NCBI GenBank assembly: GCA_001800905.1
Contig: MGWH01000005.1
Coordinates: 56,303-120,302 of the forward strand
Direction of reading: 5' to 3'
DNA from: Flavobacteria bacterium GWA2_35_26
GTDB lineage: Bacteria > Bacteroidota > Bacteroidia > Flavobacteriales > Flavobacteriaceae
Length of the DNA stretch: 64,000 bases
Positions 54,628 through 61,362 of the stretch are shown piece by piece. The stretch's first letter is position 1. Every line of letters starts with the position of its first letter. Below the pieces are notes generated by a model. It was not told the DNA's origin. It was given only the letters and a program-made list of their open reading frames with translations, and searched no databases. A program made the translations under genes and the position numbers.

Positions 54628-54658
54628 AAAAAAGGAACCAATTTGGTTCCTTTTTTTT
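54626..54658. terminator. Bidirectional terminator
   Basis: A8-GGAACCAA-t-TTGGTTCC-T8. Confidence 0.85.
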
Positions 54659-55598
54659 ATTTTTTGTTTAATGGGCTAATGATTTCTACATTTTGAAATG
54701 CAATGGCTCCTTTAATTATTCCGGAAATAGTATTCCGTAGCGCGTCGATGATATGAATTTTCAGTTCGCTTTTTGGATAAATTATGCTGACTTCACGAGC
54801 AGGTTTCGGCTCTTTAAAATGGCGTAGTTTATTTTTATCCGATTCATTTAAGTCTAAAGTATGTAAAAAAGGCAATAAGGTGGTACCTAGTCCCTCATTG
54901 GCTAACTTAATCAAAGTTTCAAAACTACCACTTTCTATTTGAAAATGATTGATTTCATTTCTGGTATTATTTCTACATAAATTAAGGATACCATCTCTAA
55001 AACAATGTCCGTCTTGTAGTAATAGAATTTCGTCCAAATTCAAATCGGCAACTTCAATTTCTTTTTTCTGGTAATGTTGATGTCCCTCAGGAATATAGGC
55101 CATAAATGGCTCATAGTAAAGCACAATCTCTTTGATTTTTTCTTCTTGGAGCGGAGTTGCAGCAATCGCCGCATCCAAATGGCCGTTGTTTAATTTTGTA
55201 ATTATTTCAGCAGTATTGAGCTCTTCAATAATCAATTTTACTTTTGGATATTTTTTGATAAAATTTTTCAAAAACATCGGAAGCAAAGTAGGCATAATGG
55301 TAGGGATAATACCTAATCTAAATTCACCACCTATAAATCCTTTTTGTTGTTCAACAATATCTTGAATTCGATCAGCTTCATTAACAATACTTTTAGCTTG
55401 AGTTACAATTTTTTGACCTATATCGGTCAATTGTATGGGTTTTTTGGTGCGATCAAAAATTTGGATATTAAGTTCCTCTTCAATTTTTTGAATTTGCATA
55501 CTCAAAGTAGGTTGAGTTACAAAACATTTGTCTGCAGCTAGCGTAAAATTTTTGTATTCAGCTACTGCAAGTACATATTTAAGTTGAGTAATAGTCAT
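54657..55598 (-). CDS. oxyR: Hydrogen peroxide-inducible genes activator OxyR (LysR family)
   Basis: LysR HTH, GIIPTIMPTLLP, redox pair GHCFRDGILNLC (C199/C208 equivalents), SFETL. Confidence 0.93.
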   Translation of the reverse strand: MTITQLKYVLAVAEYKNFTLAADKCFVTQPTLSMQIQKIEEELNIQIFDRTKKPIQLTDIGQKIVTQAKSIVNEADRIQDIVEQQKGFIGGEFRLGIIPTIMPTLLPMFLKNFIKKYPKVKLIIEELNTAEIITKLNNGHLDAAIAATPLQEEKIKEIVLYYEPFMAYIPEGHQHYQKKEIEVADLNLDEILLLQDGHCFRDGILNLCRNNTRNEINHFQIESGSFETLIKLANEGLGTTLLPFLHTLDLNESDKNKLRHFKEPKPAREVSIIYPKSELKIHIIDALRNTISGIIKGAIAFQNVEIISPLNKK

Positions 55599-55724: not shown

Positions 55725-56690
55725 CTACGATGTGCAATTAATTATTGATAAATATATTGGCATGCCAATGGTTATATTCACTGGAAATGTTATGGCTAAA
55801 GCCATAGGTAAGTAAAGTCCAGGATTTGCTTTTGGAACTGTAATTTTCATTGTAGCTGGAACTGCTATATATGATGCACTTGCGGCTAATACTGAAAAAA
55901 TAAATCGGTTTGAAATATCATCGGTTACAACGGAACTTAATATTGCAAATAAACACCCATTTACAATTGGGATTGCCACTGCAAAAACTAATGGAAACCA
56001 TCCACTGCTAAAGAAGGATTTTAATTTTTTCCCACTCGTGATTCCCATATCTAATAAAAATATTGCAAGAAAGCCTTTGAATAAATCATTTGTGAACGGC
56101 TTTATTCCTTGAGCTTGTTCTGCATTAGCTAGATAGCCAATAACTAAACTTCCAAGGATAAGCAGAACGCTACCATTCGTTAGCGAATGTTTTACAATAG
56201 ATTTTTTTTGGAATTTAGTATTATCTCCTTTGTAAAAAATCGAAATAAGCATTAATCCAATAATTATGGAAGGCGATTCCATTATTGCCATAACTGCAAC
56301 CATATGCCCGTGTAATTGCAACTGATGCGCCTCTAAATAAGATACTGCGGTAACAAATGTAACGGCACTTACAGATCCATATGCTGCTGCAATAGCCCCT
56401 GAATCAAAGAGGTTTAATTTTCTTTTCAGAATAAAAAAGGTATATACTGGAATTATTGCCGAAATACCAATACCAAATAATAAAGACCATATAATTTCAG
56501 TTGAAAAGGTTTCGTGGGATAATTCTTGCCCCCCCTTAAAACCGATGGCAAATAAAAGATATAAGGAGATAAATTTTGAGGAATTTTCAGGAATTTCTAA
56601 ATCACTTTTCAAATACACTGCAATGATTCCAAGTACGAAAAAGAGAAGAGCTGGATTTGTTAAGTTTTCAATGAGCAAGTTTACATTCAT
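55725..56690 (-). CDS. sbtA: SbtA-family sodium-dependent bicarbonate permease
   Basis: LFFVLG...KSDLEIP, LYLLFAIGFKGG, AAAYGSVSAVTF, ESPSII, LLILGSL, FLLDMG, AASASYIAVPA, ITFPVNI.IGMP. Confidence 0.88.
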   Translation of the reverse strand: MNVNLLIENLTNPALLFFVLGIIAVYLKSDLEIPENSSKFISLYLLFAIGFKGGQELSHETFSTEIIWSLLFGIGISAIIPVYTFFILKRKLNLFDSGAIAAAYGSVSAVTFVTAVSYLEAHQLQLHGHMVAVMAIMESPSIIIGLMLISIFYKGDNTKFQKKSIVKHSLTNGSVLLILGSLVIGYLANAEQAQGIKPFTNDLFKGFLAIFLLDMGITSGKKLKSFFSSGWFPLVFAVAIPIVNGCLFAILSSVVTDDISNRFIFSVLAASASYIAVPATMKITVPKANPGLYLPMALAITFPVNITIGMPIYLSIINCTS

Positions 56691-56718: not shown

Positions 56719-58071
56719 TTATCGAATTTTTGAGAATTGTAGTCTCATTCCTTTTGGGGAATAATCAAATACTCCGTTAGTATATACTATATTTCCGTTT
56801 ACAATAGTTGTCATAATTTTACTTTGGAAAACTTGTTCTTCAAAAGGAGACCATTTGCATTTATATAAAATATTTTCTTTTGTCACTTTCCATGATTGGT
56901 TTATATCAACTAATACTAAATCAGCATAATAACCTTCTCTTATATAACCGCGCTCTTTTAGCTTATAAATTTCAGCAACATAATGAGCCGTTTTTTCAAC
57001 AATCATTTCTAATGTCAATTTATTTTGATGATACATTTCTAGCAATGCAGGAAGAGCATGCTGTACTAATGGACCTCCGGACATGGCTTGAAAATAGGTT
57101 CCTGTTTTTTCTTCTATGGTATGGGGAGCATGATCTGTAGCAATTATGTCTAATTTTCCGCTATGTAATGCATCAAATAAACCCTTTTGATTCATTTCTG
57201 ATTTGATTGCAGGATTCCATTTTATTTTGGCTCCTAATTTTTTGTAATCTTGGTCTGAAAACCACAAATGATGAACGCAGGCCTCGGCAGTAATTCGTTT
57301 TTTATGTAAAGGTGTTTTGCAATCAAATAATTCGGTTTCAGCTAGAGTTGAAATATGAAATAAATGCAATCTATTTCCGTATTTTTTTGCAATATCAATT
57401 AATTCTTTCGTGGTGGAGTAACATGCTTCTTCGTTTCGTATTATGGGGTGGTATTCAAAAGGAATATCTGAATTGAATTGAAGTTGTAACGTTTCAGTAT
57501 TCTTCTTGATAATAGCATCGTTTTCGCTATGTAACGCTATTAAAGTATTGGAATTGGCAAATATTTTTTCGATATATTCTGGGTAATTGGCTATAATCCC
57601 ATCCTCTTTAGAAAAATACAATCCGTCATCTGTAACCCCACAAACATTTTCCGTATCTGTTTTTAAAGTTTCCTCCCAATTATCTTTGGTAAGCCCCATA
57701 AAAAAAGAATAATTGGCTAATGATTTTTCATCTGCTAACGAATATTTTTGTTCAAGTAATTCATTAGTAAGTGTATTAGGTAACGTATTTGGCATGTCCA
57801 TAAATGAGGTAATACCTCCAGCAACAGCTGCTATAGATTCGGTGAATAGGTCAGCTTTGTGGGTAAGTCCGGGTTCTCTAAAATGAACTTGATCGTCAAT
57901 AAATCCGGGAAGTAGGTATAAGCCTTCTGCATTAATTTCATTGCAAACAAGTTCTTTGTGTATCGCAATTGAATGATCAATTTTCTCGATTCGATTTTTG
58001 TTAATTAAGACATCTTTGGTAACAATTCTCCCTTCGTTAACAATCTGTGCATTTCGTATTATTAGTCTCAT
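56719..58071 (-). CDS. pyrC: Dihydroorotase (Bacteroidota long-type scaffold) with a TDDG motif at the usual carbamylated-Lys position
   Basis: IDDQVHFREPG, DMPNT, HLFHIST, EACVHHL, IKWNP, IATDHAPH, SGGPLVQH, WSPFE; residues 143-150 read VCGVTDDG. Confidence 0.85.
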   Translation of the reverse strand: MRLIIRNAQIVNEGRIVTKDVLINKNRIEKIDHSIAIHKELVCNEINAEGLYLLPGFIDDQVHFREPGLTHKADLFTESIAAVAGGITSFMDMPNTLPNTLTNELLEQKYSLADEKSLANYSFFMGLTKDNWEETLKTDTENVCGVTDDGLYFSKEDGIIANYPEYIEKIFANSNTLIALHSENDAIIKKNTETLQLQFNSDIPFEYHPIIRNEEACYSTTKELIDIAKKYGNRLHLFHISTLAETELFDCKTPLHKKRITAEACVHHLWFSDQDYKKLGAKIKWNPAIKSEMNQKGLFDALHSGKLDIIATDHAPHTIEEKTGTYFQAMSGGPLVQHALPALLEMYHQNKLTLEMIVEKTAHYVAEIYKLKERGYIREGYYADLVLVDINQSWKVTKENILYKCKWSPFEEQVFQSKIMTTIVNGNIVYTNGVFDYSPKGMRLQFSKIR

Positions 58072-59030
58072 AATTCAGCTACTGCTCTGTTTAATCTATC
58101 GTTTATAGATTTTCCTAGATTAATATTGGGTAATTTTTCAATTAAGAGTACGTCTAGACCTAGAGCATCCAATTCATGTAAATAAGAATATAAATTTTTT
58201 GAAGCTTCCTTAAAATCTCCTGTTGGAGATAAAATGTACTGTACAATTGGCTTAGTTGTATTTACCTTATTTTGAAATTGAAGTACCCCAATTTTTTCAG
58301 ATGAGATAGACTCTAATTCTTTTTCAATATCCTCAACTAGAAAAGATTTTGTTTTTGGAGCATAATGTTTAGTAAACATTCCAGGCGCACTTGGGGCAAT
58401 AGAATCTTTATTGTGGACCTTTATTGGGCCTACAATTTTTTCAATTTCTTCGATCGGAATAGCACCATATCTATAAAGTACAGGTAGTTCTCCTTCAAAT
58501 CCGATAATGGTTGATTCAATTCCATTTTGACAATTTCCTCCATCTAAAACAACGTCTATATCATTCTTAAAATAGTCAAAAACATGTTGCGCATTTGTTG
58601 GGCTAATTGACCCAAAAGGATTGGCGCTTGGTGCAGCTAAGGGGAAGTTTAAATGATGTAATAGCTTCAAAGTCAAAGGATGATTAGGAACTCTAACAGC
58701 AACAGTATTCTTTCCTGAAGTTACCCAATCGGAAATACAATCTTGTTTTTTTAGTACTAAGGTTAATGCACCTGGCCAAAATTGAGCCGCTAATTGAGTT
58801 GCTAAATGAGGTATTTCTTTGGCGACTTCTTTCAGTTGTTCAGTTGACTTAAGATGAACGATTAGCGGATTATTATTGGGTCTTTTTTTTATTTCGAATA
58901 TTTTCTTAACTGCGGATTCGTTATAAATATTGGCAGCCAAGCCATAAACTGTTTCAGTTGGAATTGCAACTACCTTGCCTTCATTTAGGGTATGGATTGC
59001 GAAAGAAATATCTTTAGTTATTACTGTCAT
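58068..59030 (-). CDS. sua5: Sua5-type L-threonylcarbamoyladenylate synthase (YrdC domain + Sua5 domain)
   Basis: PTETVYGL, KKRP..NPLIVH, FWPGALT, AVRVP.HP, LAAPSAN, GIESTII, linker APGM..KHYAP, C-terminal LYSYLHELD...INDRLNRA. Confidence 0.92.
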   Translation of the reverse strand: MTVITKDISFAIHTLNEGKVVAIPTETVYGLAANIYNESAVKKIFEIKKRPNNNPLIVHLKSTEQLKEVAKEIPHLATQLAAQFWPGALTLVLKKQDCISDWVTSGKNTVAVRVPNHPLTLKLLHHLNFPLAAPSANPFGSISPTNAQHVFDYFKNDIDVVLDGGNCQNGIESTIIGFEGELPVLYRYGAIPIEEIEKIVGPIKVHNKDSIAPSAPGMFTKHYAPKTKSFLVEDIEKELESISSEKIGVLQFQNKVNTTKPIVQYILSPTGDFKEASKNLYSYLHELDALGLDVLLIEKLPNINLGKSINDRLNRAVAEL

Positions 59031-59036
59031 AATTAA

Positions 59037-59873
59037 TTAAGGATTACAATAGTCGCAGTACATTGGATCTTCATACTTTTTAGTGTTAGGAAACATTTTA
59101 GTCTCTTGATGTAAACATTTTTTGCATTGATAATTAACGCTTAAAGCTGATTGTGTAGGGGAGTTGCATAAATTACATGGTAATCCTCGAGTCACTTCTT
59201 TAATTTCAAAGCCCGGGGTATCGCATCTGGGACATTTGGTATTCATCTTTTCAACTAATTTATGAGCGGTTTTTTCAATAACTTTCATTCTAGTTGGATT
59301 GAAACAAGCTCTCATATCGGTTTCAACAAATACTTTTCCGAACATTTTTTGGATTTGGTTGAATTGAATAAGTAGTTCTTTTTCATTCGTAATCCCTTTA
59401 TAACATATAGAAAAATTACTGTCATCTGATTTAAGAATTAATCCGTGGGAAGGGAATTGAATATTGGATGAAAATTCTAATAGGTCTTGTTCTGTAGCGA
59501 CATATGTTCCATTAAAATTTGTCGAAGTGCTTAATTCAGTGGCGATTATTTCTAAATTGTTTTTAATATCCAATAGCATTAAATGTTCTTCATCTGCAGG
59601 TAGAAAAAATACGGATGGATGTGCTCCAAAGGATCCCTCACTGGCAATCACTAAATCGCATTTGTAATGGTCTACTGCTGATAAGCATTTTTGGCGAAGC
59701 GTGGAGATTACATCCTTCTTTCTTTCAATTTCTCCGCTAAATGTGCCTAATGTATCGGTATTAAATAGTTGGTTTACTATGCATGTAACACCAAATTCTT
59801 TTTCAAATATTGGAGCTATTATTTTTTCTTTTCCGTGTTGAGTAGCTATCAGTAAATTTCTTCCTTCAAACAT
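59037..59873 (-). CDS. DUF6671-like protein: ITPase-like N-terminus plus four CxxC motifs
   Basis: ATQHGKE, NTDTLGTFSGEIER, IASEGSFGAHP, ETDMRA..NPTRM, then CPRC, CNLC, CKKC, CDYC. Confidence 0.7.
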   Translation of the reverse strand: MFEGRNLLIATQHGKEKIIAPIFEKEFGVTCIVNQLFNTDTLGTFSGEIERKKDVISTLRQKCLSAVDHYKCDLVIASEGSFGAHPSVFFLPADEEHLMLLDIKNNLEIIATELSTSTNFNGTYVATEQDLLEFSSNIQFPSHGLILKSDDSNFSICYKGITNEKELLIQFNQIQKMFGKVFVETDMRACFNPTRMKVIEKTAHKLVEKMNTKCPRCDTPGFEIKEVTRGLPCNLCNSPTQSALSVNYQCKKCLHQETKMFPNTKKYEDPMYCDYCNP

Positions 59874-60151
59874 TATTTATTTACTGAAATTTTAATCATA
59901 CATTCAATTTCCAATGTATGCTTTTCTTTTTCCGCTAGATGAATCACTTCTTCAATTAAACCCTTCATTTTATTCAGTTCTTCAATCCTTTTTTTGGAAT
60001 GATTAGCATCTTTATTGAAGCGAATTTGACTGCTAAAATCCTCTAAACTATGAAAACTAATCTTGTTGTTAATTAATGAGTTAAGAAGAGTTTTTGCTTC
60101 ATTTGGATCAAAAATACCTTCTATTAATTTGTGTTGTGATTCGTTTTTCAT
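59873..60151 (-). CDS. Conserved hypothetical protein (92 aa, soluble, coiled-coil)
   Basis: LIEGIF.P.EA..LL..LI..KI.FH ... S.KRIEEL; its stop overlaps the next start (TAATG). Confidence 0.7.
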   Translation of the reverse strand: MKNESQHKLIEGIFDPNEAKTLLNSLINNKISFHSLEDFSSQIRFNKDANHSKKRIEELNKMKGLIEEVIHLAEKEKHTLEIECMIKISVNK

Positions 60152-60153
60152 GA

Positions 60154-60360
60154 TTATAATTTGACTTTAGTTATTTTTAATAAATAAGTTGATACAAACA
60201 ATGATACTCCAAGAATTATAGTAGACAAGAATGAAAATTCGGATAGAATATTAAATACCATTGCTACTGACAATAAAATAATTATTGTTTTGTAAATCGT
60301 ATTTTGTGATTTACAGAACATTTTAATTTTGCTTTTCAAAAGGAATCGTATCTTTTGCAT
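60154..60360 (-). CDS. Small membrane protein (68 aa, two TM)
   Basis: Basic N-terminus and two hydrophobic helices; 2 bp from the next gene; TAAATTTG -7 element at 60380-60387. Confidence 0.55.
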   Translation of the reverse strand: MQKIRFLLKSKIKMFCKSQNTIYKTIIILLSVAMVFNILSEFSFLSTIILGVSLFVSTYLLKITKVKL

Positions 60361-60438: not shown

Positions 60439-61362
60439 ATGAATTATACATTTCATCAATTAAAAGTTTTTTTGAAAGTTTCTCAAACAAAAAGTATTAC
60501 TAAGGCTGCTAATGAGCTACATCTTACACAGCCAGCAGTATCAATACAATTAAAAAATTTTCAAGATCAATTTGAAATCCCACTTACAGAAGTAATAGGG
60601 AGGCAATTGTATGTTACTGATTTCGGAAAAGAAATTGCATCAACTGCCGAACAAATTTTAAGTGAAGTTGAAAAAATCAATTTTAAAACACTTGCCTACA
60701 AAGGAATATTATCAGGGGTGTTAAAAGTATCTGTTGTATCGACAGGGAAATATGTGATGCCTTATTTTTTGAGTGATTTTCTAAATTCAAACAATGGTAT
60801 TGAGCTTGATATGGATGTTACCAATAAATCAAAAGTGATTAAAGCTTTAAGAAATAATGAAGTTGATTTTGCATTAGTTTCTAATCTTCCTGGAGAAATC
60901 AATGTTGAATCTGAAACATTAATGCAAAATAAATTGTTTTTGGTAAGTAATAAACAGTATTTGAATGATTCAAAATTATCAAGTAATGATGCTTTAATTG
61001 ATGTTCCTTTGATTTATAGAGAAGAAGGTTCTGCTACAAGATTACATATGGAAAATTATTTTTCAAAAAAAGGATATATCATTAAAAGCAAACTGCAATT
61101 AACTTCTAATGAAGCAGTTAAACAGGCAGTAATATCAGGAATTGGTCTATCAATCATGCCGTTAATTGGTTTGAAAAACGAATTGGAAAAGGGGGATTTA
61201 AAGATTATTCCTGCCAAAGGATTACCCATTGTGACCAATTGGAAATTAGTGTGGTTAAAAGGCAAGAAAATGAGTCCGGTAGCAGCAGCTTATTTAGAGT
61301 ATATCAGACAACAAAAAACTGTAATTAATGAAAATCAATTTTCATGGATTAATAATTATTAA
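60439..61362 (+). CDS. LysR-family regulator, CbbR/CmpR-like
   Basis: YTFHQLKVF, SITKAANELHLTQPAVSIQLK, STGKYVMP, REEGSATR, SNEAVKQAV.SGIG motifs typical of the CbbR-like effector domain. Confidence 0.8.
   Translation: MNYTFHQLKVFLKVSQTKSITKAANELHLTQPAVSIQLKNFQDQFEIPLTEVIGRQLYVTDFGKEIASTAEQILSEVEKINFKTLAYKGILSGVLKVSVVSTGKYVMPYFLSDFLNSNNGIELDMDVTNKSKVIKALRNNEVDFALVSNLPGEINVESETLMQNKLFLVSNKQYLNDSKLSSNDALIDVPLIYREEGSATRLHMENYFSKKGYIIKSKLQLTSNEAVKQAVISGIGLSIMPLIGLKNELEKGDLKIIPAKGLPIVTNWKLVWLKGKKMSPVAAAYLEYIRQQKTVINENQFSWINNY

Follow-up and report, generated by a model that had tools for sequence, protein, structure and literature searches.

How does a dihydroorotase (DHOase) from a lineage built around a carbamylated lysine come to lack that lysine, and what would such an enzyme be for? 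The question is raised by a gene on the minus strand (56719..58071) of a 64,000-nucleotide stretch of contig MGWH01000005.1 from Flavobacteria bacterium GWA2_35_26 (the whole stretch is called the window below). As judged from its translation, a profile search, a tree and an AlphaFold2 (AF2) model, the 450-residue product is a DHOase paralog of the type III / NF006688 family and belongs to a [TS]DDG subfamily. The carbamylated lysine occurs without exception in archaeal and human DHOases, in the active fungal ones and in those of bacterial types II and III; type I enzymes of bacteria have instead an invariant aspartate followed by a conserved glycine, and the carboxylate of this aspartate superposes on the carbamate of the modified lysine (PMC9771888). 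A first-pass annotation of the window, made from the sequence alone, had proposed that a Lys-type scaffold acquired such an aspartate here, next to a bicarbonate importer. The analysis reported below supports this switch, assigns it to an accessory subfamily, and makes us lean towards an active isozyme that would serve when inorganic carbon is scarce.

A TDDG motif in place of the carbamylated lysine

Translation of 56719-58071 bore out the motif that had been reported. Residues 143-150 read VCGVTDDG (V143-C-G-V-T147-D148-D149-G150), with T147 to G150 encoded at 57633-57622 (feature 57622..57633, minus strand) and no lysine, and the other active-site motifs are kept: HFREPG (63-68), MPNT (93-96), HIST (239-242), KWNP (284-287) and DHAPH (313-317). 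Alignment with the Porphyromonas gingivalis PyrC structure 2GWN, conservation and the model all place the four residues at the C-terminal end of barrel strand beta4, where the carbamylated lysine would stand. In the HMMER alignment the query GVT-DDG-LYFSKEDG, i.e. GVTDDGLYFSKEDG, faces GLK---LFLGSSTG. Thus, threonine stands where 2GWN has its carbamylated lysine, three residues (DDG) are inserted directly behind it, and loop 4 is rewritten (residues 147-162; 57586..57633, minus strand; delimited by group comparison). In this loop K is changed to T, DDG is inserted, VFM becomes LYF and the GSSTG substrate lid is lost; sequence alignment of the two groups shows DDGLYF(S/N)xxxG in the Asp type where the Lys type has its lid.

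The first-pass annotation had compared this site with a Lys-type and a type I reference motif. G-[IVL]-K-[IVL]-F-x-GSSTG was found in 58/58 Lys-type Bacteroidota loci read, as well as in the second copy of the source genome, and alignments of solved type I structures read AFTDD153G in Aquifex and AFTDD151G in Bacillus anthracis. In the type I motif it is the second aspartate, followed by glycine, that is the metal ligand (PMC9771888). For this reason D149 likely corresponds to Asp151 of B. anthracis and Asp153 of Aquifex.

The protein is otherwise a type III enzyme. It passed NF006688, an NCBIfam equivalog model curated for dihydroorotases of the Bacteroidota type (619.8 bits vs a cut-off of 535), whereas the type I PRK09357 models gave 120-216 bits vs cut-offs of 538-786 (216 against 575 bits for one of them), and the scores of allantoinase models were far under their cut-offs. 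The closest solved structure by sequence was 2GWN (E=1e-126, 47% identity). The AF2 model (predicted local distance difference test, pLDDT, 93.4) matched 2GWN with a template-modelling (TM) score of 0.95, compared with about 0.81 for type I DHOases; a structure search with the model also returned allantoinases and hydantoinases, which share the fold (TM 0.87-0.90). V146 and T147 close strand beta4 in this model, and pLDDT falls to 64 over residues 151-160, as expected for a flexible loop.

With type III enzymes (2GWN; NF006688 / PRK09236) the protein shares the enlarged adjacent beta-sandwich domain, the motifs MPNT, HxE, H(I/L)ST, KWNP, DHAPH and SGGP, and a glutamine for the first histidine of HxH (DDQVHFREPG; Q61-V62-H63 at 57883..57891, minus strand). 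This glutamine is a hallmark of bacterial type III, in which it replaces one histidine of the alpha-Zn (PMC9771888). The protein differs from type III in having threonine or serine plus the inserted DDG for the carbamylated lysine, LYFxxxxG for the flexible GSSTG lid and HSE for HCE, and in being an accessory operon gene where the type III gene is the sole housekeeping pyrC. With type I (B. anthracis 3MPG, Aquifex aeolicus 3D6N) it shares the identical [TS]-D-D-G at the end of strand beta4, the motif whose second aspartate (D151/D153) in those enzymes ligates or bridges Zn without a CO2-derived modification. In contrast, identity to type I is about 26%, with the lower TM score given above, and in type I enzymes HxH is present (HVH vs QVH here), loop 4 is shorter and the adjacent domain is smaller.

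Phylogenetic origin of the motif

A tree was computed with IQ-TREE (LG+C20, careful search) after removal of the loop-4 columns. It included representatives from clustering at 50%, which had added P0123 (SDDG) and P0127 and P0128 (TDDG with HVH) to the Asp-type sequences. The main [TS]DDG clade, P0123 included, was recovered with a support of 100/97; it was sister to two Lys-type Bacteroidota sequences (83/77) and lay within the Bacteroidota Lys-type clade (91/81). Apart from P0127 and P0128, every deeper relative was Lys-type, and type I formed a distant outgroup (branch 1.37). Taken with the NF006688 score, the TM of 0.95 to 2GWN and Gln61 in DDQVHF, this nesting in the absence of the loop columns upheld the idea of a Lys-type scaffold that acquired a type I-like [TS]DDG. 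Because the clade is nested among Lys-type sequences and type I is a distant outgroup, the likeness to the type I motif is, on this topology, convergent and not inherited, and the shared Gln61 agrees with a type III origin. Inheritance or recombination from a type I enzyme was ruled out by the distant outgroup position, the type III-like flanking residues and the fold match to 2GWN.

P0127 and P0128 fell apart from the main clade in both trees, and they may represent a second origin of the Asp motif; a single clade is not rejected by an approximately unbiased (AU) test (p = 0.24). The constrained tree scored 104 log-likelihood units better than the first, quick tree, which had been insufficiently optimised. 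P0127 (L092 6001-7371) also has an asparagine for the beta-metal histidine (HLLNISS), which may be a further functional departure.

Conservation of the Asp-type subfamily

At least 145 homologs carry DDG, and we compared 145 Asp-type with 61 Lys-type Bacteroidota sequences. D148, D149 and G150 were invariant (145/145), and position 147 was T in 96% and otherwise S, so the motif is neither chance nor a sequencing error. The fixed differences between the groups were confined to residues 147-162 and to S182 (Cys in the Lys type), I187, T221, K222, I227 and Y369; all other metal and substrate residues were invariant across both types. The first-pass annotation had allowed for another lysine in the bridging position, and we found no conserved lysine in the loop: K155, considered as a substitute, was rejected as it is N in most members. 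The gene is under purifying selection, with a dN/dS of 0.05-0.07 against three close orthologs (L004-L006).

The best 120 database clusters (66-99% identity) all read G[IV]TDDG. Among the loci that we read, L004-L026 (60-94% identity, from species-representative genomes) have [TS]DDGLYF and L027-L083 (57% identity or less) have G[IVL]K[IV]F[MQ]GSSTG. The hosts of L004-L026 are Flavobacterium species, other Flavobacteriales, Chitinophagaceae/Sediminibacterium, Ferruginibacter and Sphingobacteriales metagenome-assembled genomes (MAGs), mostly from lakes and reservoirs. Carriers that have been cultured include Flavobacterium sandaracinum LB-D12, F. omnivorum CGMCC 1.2747 and F. xanthum DSM 3661. 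A threshold of 60% identity proved wrong as a classifier of the Asp type, since a second, SDDG subclade (GVSDDGLYFTKKGNLLADN) in three other Flavobacteriaceae genera is only 53-54% identical; the Asp-type counts were therefore redone by reading the motif. Thus, the Asp type is a widespread accessory subfamily of Flavobacteriales, Chitinophagales, Sphingobacteriales and others, and is not peculiar to one genome.

The Asp-type gene accompanies a Lys-type PyrC

Three DHOase-like genes are present in the source genome, that of a freshwater flavobacterium (2.1 Mb, 99.5% complete). The second encodes a canonical Lys-type PyrC (C2:661812-663143; NVAGIKIFLGSSTGNMLV, 51% identity), and a Lys-type copy was present in 17/17 main-clade (TDDG) genomes, i.e. 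the source genome and 16/16 further carriers. In a sample of 201 Flavobacteriaceae genomes, one per genus, the Asp type occurred in 5 (G000, G053, G090, G094 and G192), each with two type III genes (the motif of the second type III gene was not read in the SDDG genomes G090, G094 and G192). The 20 best-scoring single-copy Flavobacteriaceae genomes were all Lys-type, and G173, from the same genus as the source genome, has no Asp-type gene. TDDG as the ordinary state of the core flavobacterial PyrC, an option that the first-pass annotation had kept in view, is thereby rejected: those 20 single-copy genomes are Lys-type, and in the main clade the Asp type is always extra.

The third DHOase-like gene of the source genome (418 aa; C2:164829-166061, L003 1501-2757) is type I-like, with DSSVS for DxHxH and AFGDYN for AFTDDG, and resembles the inactive PyrC'-type proteins that associate with aspartate transcarbamoylase. 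The Asp-type protein could likewise be a DHOase-like subunit with a regulatory or other non-catalytic role, in the manner of the PyrC' that scaffolds aspartate transcarbamoylase, and have the product of the neighbouring DUF6671 gene as its partner. Pseudo-enzymes often arise by loss of the Lys-carbamate, one DHOase-like gene of the genome already looks clearly inactive, and the adjacency to a partner gene is constant. We nevertheless consider this very improbable, because the remaining metal ligands and substrate residues are all invariant, the inserted DDG, conserved at 100%, reproduces an arrangement proven to support catalysis, and dN/dS is about 0.05. Moreover, pseudo-DHOases of the L003 type lose both HxH and DDG, which is the opposite pattern. 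Continued DHOase chemistry is probable on the strength of the kept substrate and metal residues (R65, N95, H181, H239, D313 and H317), a motif proven in type I, purifying selection and the equivalog score.

Genes around the Asp-type dihydroorotase

The gene lies in a compact operon on the minus strand. Its start overlaps by 4 bp a gene for a full-length Sua5-type threonylcarbamoyl-AMP synthase paralog (58068..59030), which is preceded by a gene for a DUF6671 protein whose core is ITPase/YjjX/Maf-like and which bears four CxxC motifs at its C-terminal end (59037..59873) and by two small promoter-proximal open reading frames (ORFs) (59873..60360), one of 92 aa (59873-60151, kept in related operons) and a hydrophobic one of 68 aa (60154-60360). 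A permease gene of the Sbt_1 family (SbtA-like, assigned by profile and relatives; 55725..56690) follows 28 bp downstream of the DHOase. A LysR regulator (60439..61362, plus strand), for which the best match was CbbR (181 bits, under the cut-off), is divergent from the operon, so that the order is LysR on the plus strand and, divergently, the 68-aa ORF, 92-aa ORF, DUF6671, Sua5, DHOase and Sbt_1 permease. A second LysR gene (54657-55598, minus strand), OxyR-like (222 bits, under the cut-off), lies directly downstream of the permease; it is kept only in the closest relatives and is therefore not part of the operon. A scan for sigma-70 promoters and terminators gave nothing above shuffled background, with a model unsuited to Bacteroidota, and was not used.

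The same neighbourhood recurs across several orders at 60-67% protein identity. In loci L004-L026 the most constant neighbour was DUF6671 (23/23), followed by the Sbt_1 permease (19/23; 76-83% identical across orders) and Sua5 (18/23), which is missing from the SDDG and P0128 loci as well. The CbbR-like LysR was found in these loci wherever the contig extends that far, with 52-63% identity, and the order LysR, DUF6671, Sua5, DHOase, Sbt_1 was also present in L128, L130 and L131. By sequence the permease matched Synechocystis SbtA with E=2e-22, and the operon Sua5 resembles Pyrococcus Sua5 (E=3e-71). The genome has two more genes of the YrdC/TsaC family, one at C5:55380-55919, a short way upstream of the window, and the other at C6:158876-159424 (188 and 206 aa), making three paralogs in total. 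Fuller operons (L128-L131, L007, L009, L011, L013 and others) have, upstream of DUF6671, a gene for a 478-aa isocitrate dehydrogenase (Iso_dh and Isocitrate_DH_C_bact), as well as genes for two small proteins, one of 80 aa and one of 103 aa that is CutA1/PII-like and may be an analogue of SbtB, all of which are absent from the compact version in the window.

Variant arrangements bear on the role of inorganic carbon. In G054 (L106 564-6916) a homologous CbbR-like LysR is followed downstream by DabB and DabA (PF00361; PF10070 at 793 bits) and, immediately after them, DUF6671. DabAB is an energy-coupled CO2-hydrating uptake system, so that this arrangement, judged by its gene content, ties the DUF6671 family to inorganic carbon. 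In G090 (L103 2423-10409) the order is pyruvate phosphate dikinase, SDDG-DHOase, DUF6671 and phosphoenolpyruvate (PEP) carboxylase, the first and last of which form a bicarbonate-fixing anaplerotic pair. The P0128 locus reads isocitrate dehydrogenase, DUF6671, TDDG-DHOase. In the P0127 locus (L092) the gene has a 131-aa ORF on one side and a UbiA prenyltransferase gene on the other, and a beta-carbonic anhydrase gene is immediately upstream of the 131-aa ORF. G173 (L105 3489-7570) has LysR, the 92-aa ORF, DUF6671, Sua5 and Sbt_1 with the DHOase gene absent, which indicates that the Asp-type DHOase is a module that can be gained or lost within the operon.

The link to carbon that had been drawn from the adjoining permease thus became firmer with DabAB, PEP carboxylase, beta-carbonic anhydrase, Sua5 and the CbbR-like LysR in independent arrangements; the most constant neighbour is DUF6671 and not the transporter. 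The likeness to the carbon-uptake operons of cyanobacteria and chemoautotrophs (SbtA-SbtB, DabAB; CbbR/CmpR-type LysR) consists in a divergent CbbR-like LysR beside an Sbt_1 permease, DabB-DabA in relatives and a 103-aa CutA1/PII-like protein in the fuller operons. Unlike in those systems, the hosts here are heterotrophic Bacteroidota, no Rubisco or carboxysome genes were seen in the window or the fetched loci, and the operon carries DHOase, Sua5, DUF6671 and often isocitrate dehydrogenase. We infer from the gene neighbourhood that the operon may be regulated by inorganic carbon through the divergent LysR.

Alternatively, the gene could be an ordinary, redundant pyrC duplicate with coincidental neighbours and no link to CO2. 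The Sbt_1 permeases of heterotrophs are not known to transport bicarbonate, the similarity to SbtA does not go beyond E=2e-22, and the LysR falls under the CbbR cut-off. Coincidence is nonetheless improbable in view of a neighbourhood maintained across orders at the identities given above, of DabAB, PEP carboxylase and carbonic anhydrase in independent arrangements, and of the co-occurrence of DUF6671 with the Asp-type DHOase (Fisher p = 1e-6 in the 201-genome sample).

DUF6671 and the question of the substrate

DUF6671 adjoins the Asp-type DHOase in three sub-lineages and in either gene order. The family comprises at least about 8,000 sequence clusters, and its many invariant polar residues suggest that it is an enzyme. 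No sequence match to it was found in the Protein Data Bank (PDB). The model (pLDDT 90.4) gave weak Foldseek matches to ITPase, YjjX, Maf, HcgB and CinA (E around 1e-3, TM 0.3-0.5), so the modelled likeness to the ITPase/Maf type is a mere fold hint. In G192 (L104 5292-6103), the DUF6671 gene beside the SDDG-DHOase is split by a stop codon into ORFs of 158 and 132 aa; the MAG is 75% complete, and the split may reflect either a pseudogene or an error of assembly.

The constant presence of DUF6671 raises the question of whether the Asp-type protein still acts in pyrimidine synthesis. It might be a cyclic amidohydrolase that handles another ureide or cyclic amide, or works in the hydrolytic direction, and that belongs with DUF6671, and sometimes Sua5, to an undescribed carbamoyl- or CO2-related pathway in which, for example, CO2 is released or captured from a carbamoylated metabolite. 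Such a role would fit with the wholesale replacement of the substrate lid in loop 4, the canonical PyrC that is always alongside, the adjacency to an enzyme-like DUF6671 in either order, the carbamoyl-adenylate that is the product of Sua5, and the fold shared with allantoinases and hydantoinases (TM 0.87-0.90). We regard it as rather unlikely, though less so than the alternatives above, because R65, N95, H317 and every other conserved Lys-type residue are unchanged, the DHOase equivalog cut-off is still exceeded, and Sua5 is missing in 5/23 operons as well as in the SDDG and P0128 loci. Furthermore, type I DHOases, which have TDDG too, catalyse the usual reaction with no closing lid (PMC9771888).

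Discussion

On balance, we lean towards an active, carbamate-free DHOase isozyme that is part of a gene set for inorganic-carbon limitation. The carboxylate of D149 (or D148) would take the place of the Lys-carbamate and hold the Zn centre together with Q61/H63, H181, H239 and D313, so that this centre would assemble without CO2. As R65, N95 and H317, which bind carbamoyl-aspartate, are kept, the reaction is probably still the conversion of carbamoyl-aspartate to dihydroorotate. The enzyme would be co-transcribed with DUF6671, the Sua5 paralog and the SbtA-like permease under the CbbR-like LysR, as part of a set for scarce CO2/HCO3-, e.g. in high-pH, CO2-depleted lake water, with the canonical Lys-type PyrC serving under normal conditions.

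Several observations weigh against this isozyme. The GSSTG lid, whose proposed role in type III enzymes is to contact carbamoyl-aspartate, has been lost, and the LYFxxxxG loop is like neither type I nor type III. Since the lid was rewritten together with the lysine, the substrate or the kinetics may differ. The Cys beside the beta-metal histidine (HCE) has become Ser. How closely the enzyme is paired with DUF6671, which is putatively nucleotide-binding, suggests some shared function beyond a simple isozyme swap, and the operon of G173, complete but for the DHOase, indicates that the enzyme is dispensable for the core role of the operon. Finally, the genome has a beta-carbonic anhydrase and the organism makes respiratory CO2, so lysine carbamylation may never become limiting.

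In the searchable literature we found no description of a type III DHOase without the carbamylated lysine, of DUF6671 or of this operon, and nothing relevant on Sua5 with DHOase or on the modified lysine (KCX) with CO2 limitation. As a wider and more tentative proposal, which we hold to be possible but less probable than the isozyme itself, freshwater heterotrophic Bacteroidota may have a mobile inorganic-carbon starvation operon under CbbR-type control. It would combine bicarbonate import (by an SbtA-like permease or DabAB) with CO2-robust isozymes for CO2-dependent housekeeping steps, the swaps being a carbamate-free DHOase convergent with type I, a t6A enzyme of the Sua5 type and an additional isocitrate dehydrogenase, and DUF6671 would join inorganic-carbon metabolism as a new component that is obligatory.

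In the DHOase literature the aspartate solution has been treated as a peculiarity of type I. The subfamily described here points to a Lys-to-Asp switch made a second time, inside a Lys-type lineage and with almost no other sequence change. Its presence in the same cell as a Lys-type paralog provides a natural matched pair in which to study the role of the carbamate in CO2 sensing or dependence, metal affinity and pH profile, and its recurrent linkage to genes for bicarbonate or CO2 uptake offers a testable physiological reason for the switch. If the proposed role is true, this would be the first loss of the Lys-carbamate as an adaptation to CO2 scarcity, and it would suggest why type I DHOases use Asp. 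The recurrent linkage also points to an unrecognised response to inorganic-carbon limitation in abundant lake heterotrophs, and ties DUF6671, an uncharacterised family, to inorganic-carbon metabolism.

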